The translations under genes and the position numbers were made by a program. A stretch of DNA of 61,764 nt, the filler included, from Nitrospinota bacterium (lineage in GTDB: Bacteria > JAUXIQ01), in assembly GCA_030620925.1 (NCBI GenBank). It is 8 parts of 8 records of this genome, joined end to end, with 100 filler letters (N's around TTAATTAATTAA, not from the genome) between each part and the next. Parts side by side here need not be neighbours in the genome. Positions count along the whole stretch, not along the records: positions 1 to 4,658 come from JAUXIQ010000210.1; 7 more parts are not named here. The stretch is one strand, 5' to 3'. Shown in pieces: positions 1 through 58,800 of the stretch. How positions within the stretch are numbered: the stretch's first letter is position 1; each line of letters begins with the position of its first letter. The notes beneath the pieces are model-generated. The model was not told where the DNA came from. It was given only the letters and a program-made list of their open reading frames with translations, and did not search any database.

Positions 1-155
1 AAGACCTGGTGCTCCTCATCCTGGCTTTTCTGGTTCCCTATTTCGTGCCCATCCCCTTGATACTTCTGGCCATTTTCACCAGTTTCATTCAGGCGTTTGT
101 CTTTGTTTTACTCTCCATGATATACATCGCGGGTGCGCTGCATGAAGCCCATTAA
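1..155 (+). CDS. atpB: F0F1 ATP synthase subunit a, C-terminal fragment (5' truncated by window edge)
   Basis: Frame 3 reads DLVLLILAFLVPYFVPIPLILLAIFTSFIQAFVFVLLSMIYIAGALHEAH*; IQAFVF-LL-YI is the subunit a C-terminal signature; lies upstream of atpE. Confidence 0.9.
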   Translation, partial: DLVLLILAFLVPYFVPIPLILLAIFTSFIQAFVFVLLSMIYIAGALHEAH

Positions 156-227
156 TCGTAGCTAATTGCGGCGTGAGACGTAACAAATGAAATAATTTCT
201 TCGTTGAATTAAATTGGCGTCGATGGT

Positions 228-248
228 AAGGGGGGCGCAAGCCCCCTT
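228..248 (+). other. Intergenic GC-rich hairpin with GCAA tetraloop between atpB and atpE
   Basis: AAG-GGGGGC-GCAA-GCCCCC-TT; no U-tract, so more likely an mRNA stability/processing hairpin than a terminator. Confidence 0.45.
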
Positions 249-321
249 GTAGTGTCTGAGAGTTACCAATTTGCATCTTTTTCGCTTTGAGCAAACGGAA
301 TTTCGGAAGGGAGGAAAGTAG

Positions 322-675
322 ATGACTAAAAAGCTCGTAATTCTCGCCCTGGTCCTGGCTGTTGCCTTCATTGTGGTCCTGCCGGTGGCCATGGCGGCTG
401 AAGAGGGAGCGGCAGTCGACAAAACCGCTAATCTCAAGTACTACTATATTACTGCATTAGCCTGCGCTTTTGGCATAGCTATCGCCGCCTTCGGTGGTGC
501 GCTGGGCCAGGGACGCGGTATCAGCAGTGCTGTGGAGGGTATTGCCAGAAACCCCGGAGCAGGGGGGCAGATACAGACGGCCATGATCATCGGTCTGGCG
601 CTTATCGAATCGCTGGTTATCTACACCCTGGTTGTCGCGCTTATCCTGCTCTTTGTCAATCCTTTCGGTTTGTAG
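322..675 (+). CDS. atpE: F0F1 ATP synthase subunit c with N-terminal hydrophobic extension
   Basis: [14 protein letters not shown] glycine motif, IARNP loop, [10 protein letters not shown] ion-binding helix; GGAGG RBS. Confidence 0.95.
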
Positions 676-737
676 TATATAGGACTTTCGGCTTAAATAC
701 TCGGCCTATTAAGAAGGGAATATATTCCCCCCGGACT

Positions 738-917
738 AAAAGGGGCTGCTGGAAACACAGGTGACGGCATTCGAGCTATCGAGCTGAAGCGATTTCCCTG
801 CGAAAGTTGCTCTGAATCGGGCTAAGCACTGGTTCTCCGCGGGGCGTTCTCTAATACTTCCGGACTCAACTCACCGGCCGTCTTTATCATCTGTGGCATA
901 TAGCAGTCCCTTTTTTT
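738..917. ncRNA. Candidate ~180-nt rod-shaped structured RNA (6S-like size and shape, family unassigned)
   Basis: Nested end-to-end pairing: AAAAGGGGCTGCT/AGCAGTCCCTTTT, CACAGGTGA/TCATCTGTG, CGGC/GCCG, CCCTGCG/CGCGGGG; no ORF; wobble pairs do not fix the strand. Confidence 0.45.
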
Positions 918-929
918 ATGCAGAGGGAT

Positions 930-1364
930 CAAGGTGGAAAAGACGGGCTTCTTTGAGCAATTTCCGACTTGGGGAGAAGAGTCTCTCTTAACCGCCAAGA
1001 GGCGTTAGCGAAATGAAAAGGCCAGCGGCTTCGGAAGCGGTTAAAAAACCTTTTTATCTTCCCGACCTCCTCCCCTGCCCAAAAGGAGGCCCGAAATGCT
1101 TCCACCACTGGCCTTTATCTTATACTTTGTAAACCCCTAGTTATGGGGGAGGGGGAGGGGCGGCAGACTCAAGAACCTATGTCAACCTTTTATACCACCA
1201 AAGGGAAGGGGGGAAACGTTCAAAGAGAACACCCTAAAGTGTTCGTAACCCTCTCTGTGGTTTATTTGGGTCTTGGGGAGAAACCCATCCCTTGAGCCCC
1301 CGCTACCCTCCACACCACTCTTTTACACTCTATCAAAAAACTGCAGTACTCAGTTAGAATTCAC
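930..1364 (-). ncRNA. Candidate sigma54-dependent structured non-coding RNA (boundaries approximate)
   Basis: Directly downstream of a consensus sigma54 promoter; no credible ORF; several long helices whose G-U wobbles work on the minus strand; repeated TTCTCCCCAAG motif. Confidence 0.55.
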
Positions 1365-1374
1365 CTTTATAGAG

Positions 1375-1390
1375 AGCAAATAGAGTGCCA
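1375..1390 (-). promoter_or_regulatory. Sigma54 (-24/-12) promoter
   Basis: Minus strand TGGCAC-TCTAT-TTGCT, an exact match to TGGCAC-N5-TTGCW. Confidence 0.8.
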
Positions 1391-1427
1391 AAACATGGCA
1401 AATTGCATTATTTTCATCGAGTAAAGT

Positions 1428-1440
1428 TAAGTGGTTGATA
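1428..1440 (-). promoter_or_regulatory. IHF binding site
   Basis: Minus strand TATCAA-CCAC-TTA matches WATCAA-N4-TTR; lies between the sigma54 promoter and the putative enhancer sites. Confidence 0.6.
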
Positions 1441-1496
1441 TATAAAGATAATTATAGCACCGTGGCAAGCGAAAAAAGTATCCTTATTTTCATGTT

Positions 1497-1543
1497 TTCT
1501 CGATATTGAGAATTTTCGACGATTATTTTCTATTTCTGAGAAA
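1497..1543. promoter_or_regulatory. Putative tandem enhancer-binding-protein sites (UAS)
   Basis: Palindrome TTCTC-GATATT-GAGAA (1497-1512) and related TTTCTATTTCTGAGAAA (1527-1543), about 105-155 bp upstream of the -24 box. Confidence 0.45.
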
Positions 1544-1654
1544 CCTTTTTAAACCACTGCCCCTCCGATGATCGCTGTCAAACGCTCGATAAATATGCCC
1601 ACTCCCCGGCTATAAAGCATCATGCGGTCAGGCCGATAGATGGAAAAAGGCGAA

Positions 1655-2506
1655 TCAGTCGTGAGGGATGGGCAGGAGCTTACGGTAATAAAATAGCGCC
1701 GCAGCGGCACACAAAGTGAAAATTAAAATGCCCACGCCGATTTTTTTGCGATTTCTCAGCTCCTCTTTCAGCTCTTCGACTTCCTGAGCTATGGTGTCGG
1801 CTTTCACCTTTAAAGATTCAGTCTGCTCTTTTATATTGTCCATGGAGAACGTATGGAAAACTGACCCCACCGTGGCGTCCTGGGCTTGAACGCTGTTTAA
1901 CTGGTCTTCCACCCCCGACGGCAGGTACGCTCTGTACTTTTCGACAAGATCGGAGACCTGTTCCAGCCTATGCCTGGCCTCCACTATCAGTGCCTCGATC
2001 ACCTGCCCTCTGGGGGTTTCATGACACATGGCACACACTTCCTGCCGAATCTTCGCCAGCGACGTGCGTTGCACGCTATGGCTGGTATGGCAGGTAACGC
2101 AATTGGGAATGCCCATGGCGCCATGATTGCTATTCAAATAATTGTCTTTAATAGTTACATGGCATTTGCCGCAAAATTCGGGTATCTCCTCCTCGGAAGG
2201 TTTCCCTATAAAACCTACCTTCAGCGCCGCTTCCGGTGATGCTTTATGGGCCCGCCAGCTTAAGTCGGCATCTTTAGGGTCCCCCCCGTGGCAGGAGTCG
2301 CAGGTGGTTCCCACCTCTTGATGGATGCTCTGCTTCAGGAGCTTCACAGGTTCACCCCTGGGGCCGCTCAACTTGGAGTGACATAAAATACAGGAGTTAT
2401 CAGAAAAGTCTTGAGCCAGCGCCTTCTCCATTCCCAGAAAAACTGCGGAAGCAAGTATCAGGGCGATAAGCATCCTCCCCGAAGTTATCTTCTCCATTAT
2501 CGGCAT
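1655..2506 (-). CDS. Membrane-anchored pentahaem cytochrome c
   Basis: Signal peptide, five CxxCH motifs (CILCH, CDSCH, CGKCH, CVTCH, CAMCH), coiled coil, C-terminal TM helix. Confidence 0.85.
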   Translation of the reverse strand: MPIMEKITSGRMLIALILASAVFLGMEKALAQDFSDNSCILCHSKLSGPRGEPVKLLKQSIHQEVGTTCDSCHGGDPKDADLSWRAHKASPEAALKVGFIGKPSEEEIPEFCGKCHVTIKDNYLNSNHGAMGIPNCVTCHTSHSVQRTSLAKIRQEVCAMCHETPRGQVIEALIVEARHRLEQVSDLVEKYRAYLPSGVEDQLNSVQAQDATVGSVFHTFSMDNIKEQTESLKVKADTIAQEVEELKEELRNRKKIGVGILIFTLCAAAALFYYRKLLPIPHD

Positions 2507-2519
2507 TCTCCATCAGCTA

Positions 2520-2927
2520 TCAGGAATATTTCCCCCAGAGTGTTAAAGCTATAAAGGCGCTAATTACGACAATGCAAACAGGGGTAAAAATGGGTCTTTT
2601 TGCGGGATGCCGTCTTTTGCTTTTCTCCCAAAAAGGCAGAAACAATATGGCCAAACCCAAAATGCCCTGAACAGCCATTCCCGCCAATTCGTTAGGGACA
2701 ATCTTCAACATCTGATACGGAGCGAGGAAATACCACTCCGGTTTTATATGCGCCGGGGTATTCATGGGGTCGGCAGGCTCATGTATCCCATGGGGAAGGA
2801 ATATGGTCAAAGTGAAGAGCACCGCCAGGAACACGAAGAAAGCCACTCCGAACTTGAGCAGCTCATGAGGGTAAAAGGGCTCTTCATGGTTAGTATCAGT
2901 CGATTTTGAATTATTATCCACCGCCAT
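2520..2927 (-). CDS. petD: Cytochrome b C-terminal subunit (subunit IV-like)
   Basis: PADPMNTPAHIKPEWYF contains the PEWY Qo motif; three TM helices. Confidence 0.9.
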   Translation of the reverse strand: MAVDNNSKSTDTNHEEPFYPHELLKFGVAFFVFLAVLFTLTIFLPHGIHEPADPMNTPAHIKPEWYFLAPYQMLKIVPNELAGMAVQGILGLAILFLPFWEKSKRRHPAKRPIFTPVCIVVISAFIALTLWGKYS

Positions 2928-3013
2928 TGTGGGTCACCTCTTTACAACGTCATCCTTGTATAATGGTTTCCAGCCCCGGGCAGGAGCGCACCTTTCTCGA
3001 AAGAAGAGGCGTC

Positions 3014-3688
3014 TCAGAAGGGGCCCGCCACCCCCGTCCTCCTTATCATCACGAAATGCCACCCGGCAAAGGCGCTTATCATTGCAGGCAAAACCACCAC
3101 GTGCAAGGCGAAGAACCGGGTAAGAGTAACTCCGCTGACCTGCTCGCTTCCCCGCGACATTCTGACCATCCATTCCCCTATTATCGGTGCTGAGCCGGGC
3201 ATGTTGGTACCCACCGTTGCTCCCCAGTAGGAGAGCTGAGTCCAGGGGAGGAGGTAGCCGGTGAAACTGGTTATGAGGGTGAGACCGAAGAGGAAGATGC
3301 CTGAAATCCAGTGCAACTCCCTCGGTTTCTGGTACGCGTTGTAGAAGAGCACCCGCACCATGTGGGCCATAACCAATATTATCATGGTGTTGGCCCCAAT
3401 GGAATGCACTCGCTGAATGAGCCAGCCGTAGGGCACCTCTTTTACGATGAACTCGATGCTGCCGTAAGCCAGTTCGGGCGTGGGCTTATAGTACATCATG
3501 AGGAACACGCCGGTTACCACCTGAATGATGAAAATAGTCAAAGAGAGCCCGCCCAGGCAGTAGAGCCAGTTTATATGGGGTGGCACCATCTTCTTGGTGG
3601 TGTTCTTTTCGAGCTCTTCCTTTATGGTAAAACGCTCCTCCAGCCAATCCAGCAGAGCGCTATCCTTTTTGCTGGCGAACATTTTCAA
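3014..3688 (-). CDS. petB: Cytochrome b6-like (cytochrome b N-terminal subunit)
   Basis: NWLYCLGG, GWLIQRVH, AHMVRV, TGYLLPW, RFFALH haem-ligand motifs. Confidence 0.92.
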   Translation of the reverse strand: MKMFASKKDSALLDWLEERFTIKEELEKNTTKKMVPPHINWLYCLGGLSLTIFIIQVVTGVFLMMYYKPTPELAYGSIEFIVKEVPYGWLIQRVHSIGANTMIILVMAHMVRVLFYNAYQKPRELHWISGIFLFGLTLITSFTGYLLPWTQLSYWGATVGTNMPGSAPIIGEWMVRMSRGSEQVSGVTLTRFFALHVVVLPAMISAFAGWHFVMIRRTGVAGPF

Positions 3689-4131
3689 ACACCTCCCAAT
3701 ATAACCTTGCCCCCCGCAACCCTGACGGGGAATTTTTCAAGTGGCCGGGGAGGGGGCCCCGCCAGTACATTTCCGTCAGTATCGAATTTCCCTGCATGGC
3801 AGGGGCAGAAGAGAATGCCTTCCTCTTCCTGCCATTTCACAATGCATCCCAGATGAGGGCATACCGCCGTAAGCGCAATATATCCCCCGCCTGTATTGAT
3901 GACCACCGCGGGGTTGCCTTTATAATTAATGAGAACAGCCTTGCCGGGCGGCAGATCAGCTTCCGCAATCTCCACTCTGCCCTCGCCCTCTTGCTGCTTT
4001 ATCGGCTGCAGGTATCTCACAAAGGGATATGTCACCCCGGCAACAGTGGCAATACCAAAAAATCCTATCAACCCTTTGATAAACTTTCTTCTTTTCGACA
4101 ATGCGTCCGAATCAATTGTCCCGTCAACCAT
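3685..4131 (-). CDS. petC: Rieske 2Fe-2S protein
   Basis: Tat-like KRRKFIK plus TM helix; CPHLGC and CPCH Rieske boxes; GPPPRPL. Confidence 0.92.
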   Translation of the reverse strand: MVDGTIDSDALSKRRKFIKGLIGFFGIATVAGVTYPFVRYLQPIKQQEGEGRVEIAEADLPPGKAVLINYKGNPAVVINTGGGYIALTAVCPHLGCIVKWQEEEGILFCPCHAGKFDTDGNVLAGPPPRPLEKFPVRVAGGKVILGGV

Positions 4132-4162
4132 TTCTCTTCACTTCCTGCATCGCAAACCACCA

Positions 4163-4658
4163 TCATTTGAGTATCCGGGAACTATCGGAGGACATCTCGA
4201 CCTCCATCCTCCCTTCCTCAAGCAGAAGTGGCTTATACAGATAAGATACCTTAGCTTTCGCCTCCACCGGTTTGCCTCTGGGAATCGAGAAAAAGAAATG
4301 TTCTCTCCTTCTCTCCCCGGGAGACAATCTGTTGTCGGAAGCGATCTTGGCGGATTTTAACAATATAAGGCTGTCTCTGGTCAATTCATTGCCTTCCTTA
4401 TCGAGCATGGTCTTTTTATAAATTCGCTGATCGGTGAGAACCAGACCTCTATCGGTCTTAACTGAAACGGTTAACACCAGCATCCGGCTGGGAATCCCCG
4501 TGGGGACCATGTGTCCGGAGCCTTTATTTATCACTTCGATGGTTACGCGGACCTTATCCGCCTCCACGGCTACCTCGATTATCTTTACTTCAACCGCCTT
4601 CTTGAGCATGGGGATGGAATGGCCGCCACTAACATCGTGCCGGTTGATCACTCCCCTT
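4163..4658 (-). CDS. C-terminal part of a probable multihaem cytochrome c-type protein (5' truncated at contig end)
   Basis: N-x-GSGHMVPTG-x-P-x-R and DNRL-x-P-x-E motifs typical of the C-terminal domain of such cytochromes; CxxCH motifs are not inside the contig. Confidence 0.6.
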
Positions 4659-4758
4659 NNNNNNNNNNNNNNNNNNNNNNNNNNNNNNNNNNNNNNNNNN
4701 NNTTAATTAATTAANNNNNNNNNNNNNNNNNNNNNNNNNNNNNNNNNNNNNNNNNNNN
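4659..4758. other. Artificial contig linker; identical linkers at 9357-9456, 33911-34010, 38928-39027, 42265-42364, 54206-54305 and 58701-58800
   Basis: 100-nt N-run containing TTAATTAATTAA, which has stops in all frames. Confidence 0.98.
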
Positions 4759-9356: not shown

Positions 9357-9535
9357 NNNNNNNNNNNNNNNNNNNNNNNNNNNNNNNNNNNNNNNNNNNN
9401 TTAATTAATTAANNNNNNNNNNNNNNNNNNNNNNNNNNNNNNNNNNNNNNNNNNNNATCCGCGCGGGTCTCGCGCAATTACGGATTTTTATTAACCGCTT
9501 TACCGCCCCTACAAATCTGTGGTAACACTGGTAAC

Positions 9536-33910: not shown

Positions 33911-34010
33911 NNNNNNNNNNNNNNNNNNNNNNNNNNNNNNNNNNNNNNNNNNNNTTAATTAATTAANNNNNNNNNNNNNNNNNNNNNNNNNNNNNNNNNN
34001 NNNNNNNNNN

Positions 34011-38927: not shown

Positions 38928-39027
38928 NNNNNNNNNNNNNNNNNNNNNNNNNNNNNNNNNNNNNNNNNNNNTTAATTAATTAANNNNNNNNNNNNNNNNN
39001 NNNNNNNNNNNNNNNNNNNNNNNNNNN

Positions 39028-42264: not shown

Positions 42265-42364
42265 NNNNNNNNNNNNNNNNNNNNNNNNNNNNNNNNNNNN
42301 NNNNNNNNTTAATTAATTAANNNNNNNNNNNNNNNNNNNNNNNNNNNNNNNNNNNNNNNNNNNN

Positions 42365-46534: not shown

Positions 46535-46612
<78 letters not shown>

Positions 46613-54205: not shown

Positions 54206-54305
54206 NNNNNNNNNNNNNNNNNNNNNNNNNNNNNNNNNNNNNNNNNNNNTTAATTAATTAANNNNNNNNNNNNNNNNNNNNNNNNNNNNNNNNNNNNNNN
54301 NNNNN

Positions 54306-58700: not shown

Positions 58701-58800
58701 NNNNNNNNNNNNNNNNNNNNNNNNNNNNNNNNNNNNNNNNNNNNTTAATTAATTAANNNNNNNNNNNNNNNNNNNNNNNNNNNNNNNNNNNNNNNNNNNN

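Follow-up and report, generated by a model that had tools for sequence, protein, structure and literature searches.

A candidate sigma-54-dependent gene for a structured non-coding RNA between the cytochrome bc and ATP synthase genes of a Nitrospinota bacterium

A Nitrospinota bacterium known from a metagenome-assembled genome (MAG; GenBank assembly GCA_030620925.1, 2.5 Mb in 445 contigs, 89% complete; G000 below) carries, between its respiratory bc-type complex genes and its ATP synthase Fo genes, what is probably a minus-strand gene for a structured non-coding RNA of about 355 nt, driven by sigma-54 and belonging to no known family. The DNA analysed, called the window here, is 61,764 nt long and consists of at least eight contigs of this MAG joined by runs of N; the locus lies on contig C157, which makes up window positions 1-4658. 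On the plus strand of this contig the end of atpB is followed by atpE (322-675), and on the minus strand lie genes for a multihaem cytochrome c (1655-2506), cytochrome b subunit IV, cytochrome b and a Rieske protein, as assigned by Pfam on their orthologues in a comparison genome. The 979-bp gap between atpE and the cytochrome c gene (676-1654) contains a promoter unit and the core of the predicted RNA, and the gene order around it is the same in the comparison genome (G001), a likewise 89% complete MAG of a different genus and the only other species genome of the same phylum-level group in the reference collection searched. The RNA gene is single-copy in both genomes.

The promoter unit consists of two enhancer sites, a site for IHF (integration host factor) plus one sigma-54 promoter of the -24/-12 type, all on the minus strand (Table 1). 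An earlier reading of this DNA, made from the sequence alone (the sequence-only reading below), had described two related palindromic sites within 1497-1543, a consensus IHF site and an exact TGGCAC-N5-TTGCT as the standard sigma-54 layout; all are present where it had placed them, and their order and geometry are kept in the second genus. In G001 the distal enhancer site reads TTCTCATAAATAGAA at the aligned place, the proximal one TTCTCATATTCGAGAA and the IHF site AATCAATTATTTA, and the promoter counterpart, TGGCATTTTATTTGCT, matches the GG-N10-GC core (TGGCAC-N5-TTGCW) as TGGCACTCTATTTGCT does. Measured from the GG of the -24 element, the centres of the distal and proximal sites lie 146.5 and 116 bp upstream in the window and 148.5 and 118 bp upstream in G001, with 30.5 bp between the two sites in both genomes, and that of the IHF site lies 45.5 bp upstream in the window versus 46.5 bp in G001. 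Both enhancer sites fall in the range of about 80-150 bp upstream where activator sites are expected. All four elements thus recur in the same order and orientation with distances within 2 bp. Identity between the genomes is 78.7% in the enhancer block and 54.5% in the spacer from promoter to enhancer.

Table 1. Predicted features of the RNA locus (window positions)
Feature	Position	Strand	Remarks
Distal enhancer site TTCTCAGAAATAGAA	1528-1542	minus	imperfect inverted repeat, N5; predicted
Proximal enhancer site TTCTCAATATCGAGAA	1497-1512	minus	perfect 5+5 palindrome TTCTC-N6-GAGAA; predicted
IHF consensus match TATCAACCACTTA (= WATCAANNNNTTR)	1428-1440	minus	site predicted from sequence
Sigma-54 -24/-12 promoter TGGCAC-N5-TTGCT, TGGCACTCTATTTGCT	1375-1390	minus	predicted
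Transcription start	1364	minus	predicted, 12 nt past the C in the GC of the -12 element, by the usual sigma-54 geometry
Variable 5′ leader of the RNA	1317-1363	minus	46% identical to G001, 22 gap columns
Closing helix P1, 5′ strand	1290-1311	minus	pairs with 1154-1174
Hairpin P1a, GGGUUU(CUCCCCA)AGACCC	1268-1286	minus	6 pairs; two alternate U-A/U-G between the genomes and stay paired
Hairpin P2, including GAACAC/GUGUUC	1222-1254	minus	two helices with 10 pairs; changes: 1 compensatory, 3 one-sided
C/U-rich block CGUUUCCCCCCUUCCCUUUGGUGG	1195-1218	minus	24 nt, identical in G000 and G001
Closing helix P1, 3′ strand	1154-1174	minus	pairs with 1290-1311
Small hairpin CCCC(loop)GGGG	1134-1148	minus	stem invariant, loop sequence differs between the genomes
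3′ rod domain	1017-1116	minus	100 nt; 12-bp base stem, GGAAGC/GCUUCC helix, UUUC/GGAA helix, apical hairpin
Apical hairpin of the rod	1066-1089	minus	invariant CCUCCUUUU(GGGCAG)GGGGAGGAGG
U-rich tail (with the last stem U's, UUUUCAUUU)	1009-1016	minus	probable 3′ end of the RNA

Transcription from sigma-54 promoters usually begins about 12 nt past the -12 element, and the start given in Table 1 follows this rule. A TATAAA hexamer lies 3 nt past the -12 element (1366-1371, minus), with TATAAT in the same place in G001. It could be the -10 box of an overlapping weak sigma-70 promoter, by analogy with E. coli glmY, for which such an overlapping promoter is described in PMC3045617; the promoter/terminator scan found no -35 match for the hexamer. 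A small hairpin, TGCCATGTTTTGGCA (1386-1400, minus), overlaps the -24 element; flagged as terminator-like by the scan, it lacks conservation in G001.

Taken one at a time, the promoter motifs are only mildly unusual and make weak evidence. The sigma-54 pattern has a single match in the 61.8-kb window, and at least one match occurs in 14 of 100 shuffles; the IHF pattern has four matches against 1.76 expected; and TTCTM-N5,6-GAGAA has three, all at the RNA locus, against 0.58 expected, a number reached by 3 of 100 shuffles. Across the 2.5 Mb of G000 the strict sigma-54 pattern occurs four times. The other three occurrences (C90 at 4608, minus; C95 at 3583, plus; C242 at 3513, plus) stand about 100 nt before open reading frames (ORFs) with ribosome-binding sites, namely an ammonium transporter-like gene, a small Cys-rich protein and a secreted or porin-like protein, and the strict motif therefore appears to mark real promoters in this genome. 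TTCTC-N6-GAGAA occurs five times in G000, and only the RNA locus combines an AT-rich gap with an adjacent second site. The unit rises above chance through the order and orientation in which its elements stand inside 170 bp of an intergenic gap, and because G001 retains all four of them with their spacing.

Downstream of the promoter, a core (1010-1316) is 75.9% identical to G001, to be set beside 75.1% for atpE and 64.8% for the cytochrome c gene. Its flanks are far less alike, 41.3% over the 335 nt toward atpE and 46.3% on the 5′ side, and within the gap only the core is matched by blastn (1066-1316, 78% identical, E 1.5e-50). Insertions and deletions inside the core measure 1, 2, 2, 5 and 2 nt, and a six-frame comparison with G001 returns peptide matches in all frames of both strands, hopping between frames (13-38 aa among the 14 best). 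These non-triplet indels and frame-hopping matches rule out a conserved ORF in the core. The sequence-only reading had seen no credible ORF here, a claim that the comparison confirms: ORFs of 43, 59 and 58 aa do exist, none of them conserved in G001; its larger claim, that the unit faces structured non-coding DNA rather than a gene, is borne out by a core that is conserved, folded and without a conserved frame.

The fold was modelled with RNAalifold on G000 and G001 only, so that the structure is derived from the same two sequences on which it is judged. On the minus strand the consensus has an energy of -95.8 kcal/mol and 79 pairs, with 158 of 158 cells paired across both genomes; three pairs change in a compensatory way, ten by one-sided changes (mostly G-U versus A-U or G-C), and none is broken. 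When partners are slid by 1-3 columns, pairing falls to 47-67% of cells. As a single sequence the window RNA folds at a minimum free energy of -133.6 kcal/mol (z -3.49), equalled by none of 100 shuffles, and that of G001 at -112.7 kcal/mol (z -4.06). Separate folds of the two RNAs show the same architecture of closing helix, inner hairpins, CCCC/GGGG hairpin and rod. Of the 23 pairs of the closing helix, 20 are invariant, two change on one side and one is compensatory (G-C to A-U), with none broken. By the generic measures of a structured non-coding RNA, the core thus has compensatory changes, a fold better than shuffles and no conserved frame, in a sample of two sequences.

Pairings predicted by the sequence-only reading reappear in this model. 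In G001 one compensatory change is seen in the pairing of 1289-1299 with 1165-1175 and another in that of 1105-1116 with 1017-1028, the hairpin at 1227-1244 is kept there with one G-U for A-U change, and the inner hairpin CCUCC/GGAGG is invariant. Close strains, with pieces 90-99% alike, are represented in four DNA runs from marine, sediment and cold-seep metagenomes, where the locus is present and from whose contigs strain variants were taken. Among the variants listed, those at 1068, 1226 and 1253 lie at paired positions and leave the pairs intact, the latter two turning G-U pairs of P2 into G-C and A-U; apart from two positions taken up below, the others lie at unpaired positions. In the C/U-rich block the 5′ half is mostly unpaired in the ensemble (unpaired probability 0.5-1.0), and in each of the two single-sequence folds its 3′ half is paired with CCAC..AGGG. 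The modelling supports P1, hairpin P1a, the outer part of P2 and the rod, and leaves the central helices unsettled.

The rod at the 3′ side has the same architecture in both genomes, with folding energies of -54.3 kcal/mol in the window and -41.7 kcal/mol in G001. Its 12-bp base stem, AAAGGCCAGUGG/CCGCUGGCCUUU, carries one compensatory and one one-sided change. After the stem comes a tail, UCAUUU in the window and GUUUUAUUU in G001, the whole U-rich tail with the stem U's being UUUGUUUUAUUU in the latter, and it is at this tail that sequence conservation with G001 ends. Rod and tail (1009-1116) form a probable intrinsic terminator. Read in this way, the rod gives an RNA of about 355 nt, from about 1364 to 1009. 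The length of 430-630 nt proposed by the sequence-only reading is most likely too large, given this rod and U-tract and the 41% identity of the DNA from 1009 to atpE.

The RNA could not be assigned to a known family, as the sequence-only reading had said. On window positions 500-1900 the best Rfam covariance-model scores are 14.9-17.8 bits, with E values of 2.4 or more, where the gathering scores stand at 41-130, and these sub-threshold matches are eukaryotic miRNA or lncRNA models or suhB; over the whole window, only one tRNA passes the gathering threshold, and GlmY, GlmZ, CrcZ, Qrr, 6S, CsrB/RsmZ, RsaE, riboswitches and large ncRNAs are not matched. An exact 21-mer scan of genome contigs finds only the G001 contig, and blastn over 401 genomes matches the RNA locus in G000 and G001, as did a search of 41 genomes. 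Seven further genomes among the 401 share matches of 22-39 nt, with per-genome E values of 7.5e-4 to 8.5e-3, which is chance level for 400 genomes. A 19-mer scan of metagenomes gave five loci, each common over just 19-24 nt and treated as chance, two of which (L006 and L010) have low-complexity, eukaryote-like ORFs without related flanks. Searches of plasmid and phage sequences gave no match to the locus. Among the collections searched, homologues were found only in G000, G001 and their close strains. A full-text literature search on Nitrospinota small RNA yielded no such RNA, as judged by the titles and abstract openings of some of its results.

For transcription of this kind, rpoN, genes for enhancer-binding proteins and IHF-like genes are present. 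The rpoN product scores 438 bits in G000 and 448 in G001 (cut-off 277.35), and a Sigma54_activat profile search of G000 gives eight matches, four of them at E 4.7e-56 or better. An IHF-beta-like protein of G000 passes its cut-off (116.5 bits versus 115) and an IHF-alpha-like protein falls 1.3 bits short (109.7 versus 111), so that of rpoN and ihfAB, named by the sequence-only reading as genes to be confirmed, rpoN and the beta-like subunit stand above cut-off and the alpha-like one just under it. On contig C22 of G001 a histidine kinase, an enhancer-binding protein (EBP), a second sigma-54 promoter and a response regulator precede, in this order and on the same strand, the cytochrome bc operon, after which comes the RNA locus. 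The kinase is of the dCache-HAMP-PAS type with AtoS as its best NCBIfam match, below cut-off; the EBP beside it is of the NtrC/AtoC type, and the pair lies 5 kb upstream of the RNA. This second G001 promoter, TGGCATGACCTTTGCT (L011, at 9380 in the region 9365-9500, minus), precedes a single-domain response regulator. About 109 bp upstream of it, directly after the EBP gene, stands TTCTTATATTTAAGAG, a relative of the RNA enhancer sites, which may be a site of the same activator. The kinase has an orthologue in G000 (69% identical, contig C133). As a lead, this AtoS/AtoC-like pair may drive the RNA promoter.

The proposed course of events would be as follows. Sigma-54 RNA polymerase would transcribe the RNA from TGGCAC-N5-TTGCT, starting only with an NtrC/AtoC-type EBP bound at both TTCTC..GAGAA sites, 116 and 146 bp upstream, and a bend induced by IHF at 1428-1440 would join activator and polymerase. 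In the folded transcript a 23-bp helix would close a multi-branched 5′ domain, to be followed by a 100-nt 3′ rod, whose U-rich tail would end transcription near 1009. The activator would be the kinase and EBP pair found in G001 5 kb upstream on the same strand, and the RNA would act in trans as the output of this pair, binding a partner, at best guess, by way of its two most conserved parts, namely the C/U-rich block (1195-1218), which is invariant and in part exposed, and the loop GGGCAG.

The proposed wiring is of the GlmY/GlmZ and CrcZ/CrcY kind, and the RNA itself is unrelated to them. The GlmY and GlmZ RNAs are about 150-200 nt long, versus about 355 nt predicted here. CrcZ, at about 400 nt, is of similarly large size and is defined by repeated A-rich motifs, which are not seen in the RNA studied. 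The Qrr small RNAs (sRNAs) of Vibrio, under LuxO and sigma-54, are the mainly non-coding output of a dedicated EBP and are about 100 nt long, multicopy and Hfq-dependent; the circuit proposed here would share with them the dedicated EBP with RNA as output, but the RNA is single-copy and about 355 nt long, with no Hfq found and no Rfam match. In the RsaE/RoxS-type sRNAs of Firmicutes, an exposed C-rich stretch can pair with G-rich Shine-Dalgarno regions without Hfq. They resemble the RNA studied in the C-rich stretch and serve as a model for one proposed mode of action, whereas there is no homology to them, the RNA is far longer and its control is by sigma-54. Transcription of GlmY/GlmZ uses a sigma-54 promoter with the response regulator GlrR at conserved upstream sites and requires IHF (PMC3045617). 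The system of Enterobacteriaceae with GlrK-GlrR is alike in leading from a sensor kinase through an EBP to a non-coding RNA with sigma-54 and IHF; it is unlike in its three GlrR sites, versus two TTCTC..GAGAA-type sites here, in the phylum, in the lack of an Rfam match and in that Hfq was found in neither MAG here. In Pseudomonas, CrcZ and CrcY are activated by CbrB with IHF, the sites standing in the order EBP, IHF, sigma-N, and the RNAs sequester a protein (PMC6296734). CbrA-CbrB and CrcZ/CrcY are alike in an EBP-activated regulatory RNA assisted by IHF, in the site order and in protein sequestration, one of the modes considered here, and unlike in that the CbrB subsites are non-palindromic and TGTTAC-type (PMC6296734), in contrast to the inverted repeats at this locus, and in that no Rfam match links the RNAs.

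How the predicted RNA would act was approached through its possible partners. Hfq was found in neither of the two MAGs, each 89% complete, and its absence is likely; CsrA was likewise found in neither. An Hfq-dependent sRNA was rejected on the first of these results. A CsrA sponge of the CsrB/RsmZ type was rejected on the second and because the single good motif, AAGGGAUGG, reads AAGAAUAGG in G001. A 2-oxoacid:ferredoxin oxidoreductase alpha-like gene carries within its coding sequence a perfect 17-nt complement of the C/U-rich block (G000:C30:1546-1562, minus, L025). G001 has no comparable complement with up to two mismatches in a like gene, and the C30 match could be chance in G-rich sequence. 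Counts with up to two mismatches are 3 and 2 for a backwards control against 2 and 3 for the block, the RNA gene itself included. Its 11-mers GGGGGGAAACG and GGGAAGGGGGG have 8 and 9 sites in G000, versus 4 and 4 for the control, and 4 and 2 in G001, versus 1 and 2, where the sites precede unrelated genes. The ribosome-binding region of atpE, GGAAGGGAGGAAAG (window 300-321, plus; GAAGGGAGGAGA in G001), could pair with the block at 12 out of 13 positions, but atpE comes only at rank 723 when 5769 candidate start regions are put through a crude duplex screen. The distribution of that screen is the same as with a reversed-seed control (mean -15.5 versus -15.1, best -35.2 versus -37.6), and it points to no target.

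A protein that is titrated or scaffolded by the RNA is a tentative choice of partner, with a somewhat less than even chance. G-rich ribosome-binding regions of mRNAs, paired without Hfq through the C/U-rich block by analogy with RsaE/RoxS-type sRNAs, are possible too but not likely by themselves. The two are roughly equally likely, and the evidence does not separate them. As the target screens gave neither conservation nor excess over control, the commitment made here is limited to a trans-acting RNA that binds its partner through its invariant parts.

A different product of the same promoter has also to be considered. The promoter faces atpE, whose stop codon at 675 lies 335 nt past the rod (275 nt in G001, with the same layout), and no other gene lies downstream on the minus strand; an antisense RNA into the convergent atpE-atpB would suit this arrangement, with the structured element as a conditional terminator or riboswitch-like leader. 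Such a reading is unlikely, however, since the rod is very stable and has a U-rich tail in both genomes, no conserved alternative anti-terminator pairing and no Rfam riboswitch match were found, and the DNA between rod and atpE is so little conserved.

A DNA-level or relic element that is conserved without a functional RNA, its motifs being chance products of AT-rich DNA, would agree with the near-chance frequency of each motif alone, with the sample of two genomes and with an RNA known from DNA alone. It is nevertheless very unlikely, because four motifs keep their order and distances across genera while the spacers diverge, and because the core is conserved like atpE, single-copy in both genomes and absent from the plasmids and phages searched.

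The conserved element could instead belong to the plus strand, as a long 3′ untranslated region of atpE or a bidirectional terminator region, with the sigma-54 unit unrelated or vestigial. On this strand, too, the rod is followed by a T-rich run, TTTATCTTAT (TTTTTCTTCT in G001), so that it may stop atpE transcripts as well; the terminator scan found no good terminator directly 3′ of atpE, and the plus-strand fold of G001 (-108.3 kcal/mol, z -2.27) is nearly as good as its minus-strand fold. Yet in the window the plus strand folds at only -108.4 kcal/mol (z -1.29), which 12 of 100 shuffles equal, and its consensus fold (-78.25 kcal/mol, 68 pairs) is 17.5 kcal/mol weaker than that of the minus strand, the long helix being interrupted at minus-strand G-U positions. 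About ten pairs that are G-U on the minus strand in one genome would be A-C mismatches on the plus strand, in agreement with the claim of the sequence-only reading that the wobbles favour the minus strand. The promoter geometry, moreover, is conserved, and the DNA from atpE to the rod is not. A plus-strand origin is accordingly highly improbable.

There is next to no chance that the promoter serves a small protein gene, such as the 43-aa ORF (1182-1313) or the 59-aa ORF (929-1108), which do exist, the latter sharing with G001 the 13-residue stretch EAFR[AT]SFWAGEE with two of three nucleotide changes synonymous, because the 43-aa frame has no G001 counterpart, closing there after 9-20 codons and lacking a start codon, the 59-aa ORF diverges after that stretch and from the equivalent start is 20 aa in G001, stopping 39 residues sooner, short peptide matches occur in all six frames, the core has non-triplet indels, and no ribosome-binding site stands at a proper distance.

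Several observations weigh against the sigma-54-driven structured RNA preferred here. First, the RNA is known from DNA alone, none of the 24 listed runs that contain the stretch being an RNA run. Second, conservation and covariation in relatives, named by the sequence-only reading as a test, are seen for the promoter and for 79 of 79 pairs, but in one relative, and the covariation is without statistical force because only two diverged sequences are at hand; 58 of 500 shuffles reach the observed values. Third, when each sequence is laid on the fold predicted for the other alone, 14 of 95 and 10 of 89 pairs are lost, partly through a 2-3-nt misalignment around GCUUCC, a helix that MAFFT misaligns; the central part (about 1180-1260) is folded differently by RNAalifold and by the single-sequence folds, and among the strain variants listed those at 1188 and 1196 break pairs in the two weakest central helices. 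Fourth, by a hand estimate, the four strict sigma-54 motifs of the genome are about as many as expected by chance. Fifth, the presumed terminator hairpin is atypically long at 100 nt and was not flagged by the simple terminator scan, whose loop limit is 8 nt. Sixth, screening G000 and G001 for targets of the C/U-rich block yielded no more signal than the reversed-sequence control. Finally, an EBP orthologous to that of G001 was not found in the G000 assembly, the best match being 45.7% identical, and the link to the activator therefore comes from G001 only and from one similar upstream site.

Even so, this is a well-supported candidate for a new sigma-54-dependent non-coding RNA gene, within a known kind of circuit. 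Only a few cases, all from proteobacteria (GlmY/Z, CrcZ/Y and Qrr), are known in which a sigma-54 activator switches on a non-coding RNA rather than a protein operon. If true, the present case would be an RNA family unrelated to these and wired like them, in a deep-branching, uncultured lineage of marine sediments. Large (>300 nt) structured bacterial RNAs without a family are few, and the present case would be one more candidate; it would also give a handle on signalling in this lineage, with a periplasmic-dCache kinase, an activator, an enhancer sequence and a single RNA target that are testable in a heterologous host. A bolder possibility, and a long shot, is that this lineage-restricted large RNA is the dedicated, perhaps the only, output of the dCache kinase and sigma-54 activator and retunes energy metabolism without Hfq or CsrA, perhaps as an anti-Shine-Dalgarno mimic or a protein-binding scaffold. 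It is hinted at by the invariant CCUCCUUUU/GGGGAGGAGG hairpin and the 24-nt C/U-rich block, and, if true, riboregulators under sigma-54 control would gain a new class, in a candidate phylum of which only two genomes are known. The practical weight of the finding is limited, the organism being uncultured.

Some features of the window stand apart from the RNA. Runs of N occupy 4659-4758, 9357-9456, 33911-34010, 38928-39027, 42265-42364, 54206-54305 and 58701-58800, and distances across them are meaningless. A tRNA gene lies at 46538-46612 on the minus strand. The ATP synthase c subunit encoded by atpE (117 aa, plus strand) has a hydrophobic N-terminal extension of about 45 residues ahead of its Pfam domain, and in the G001 protein this domain covers residues 48-111 of 119. 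A repeated element that starts with GGGCAGGCCCCTGTGCCTGCCCAAATAATA occurs on at least eight contigs of G000 (C20, C33, C132, C187, C271, C284, C373 and C402) and looks like a dispersed palindromic repeat.

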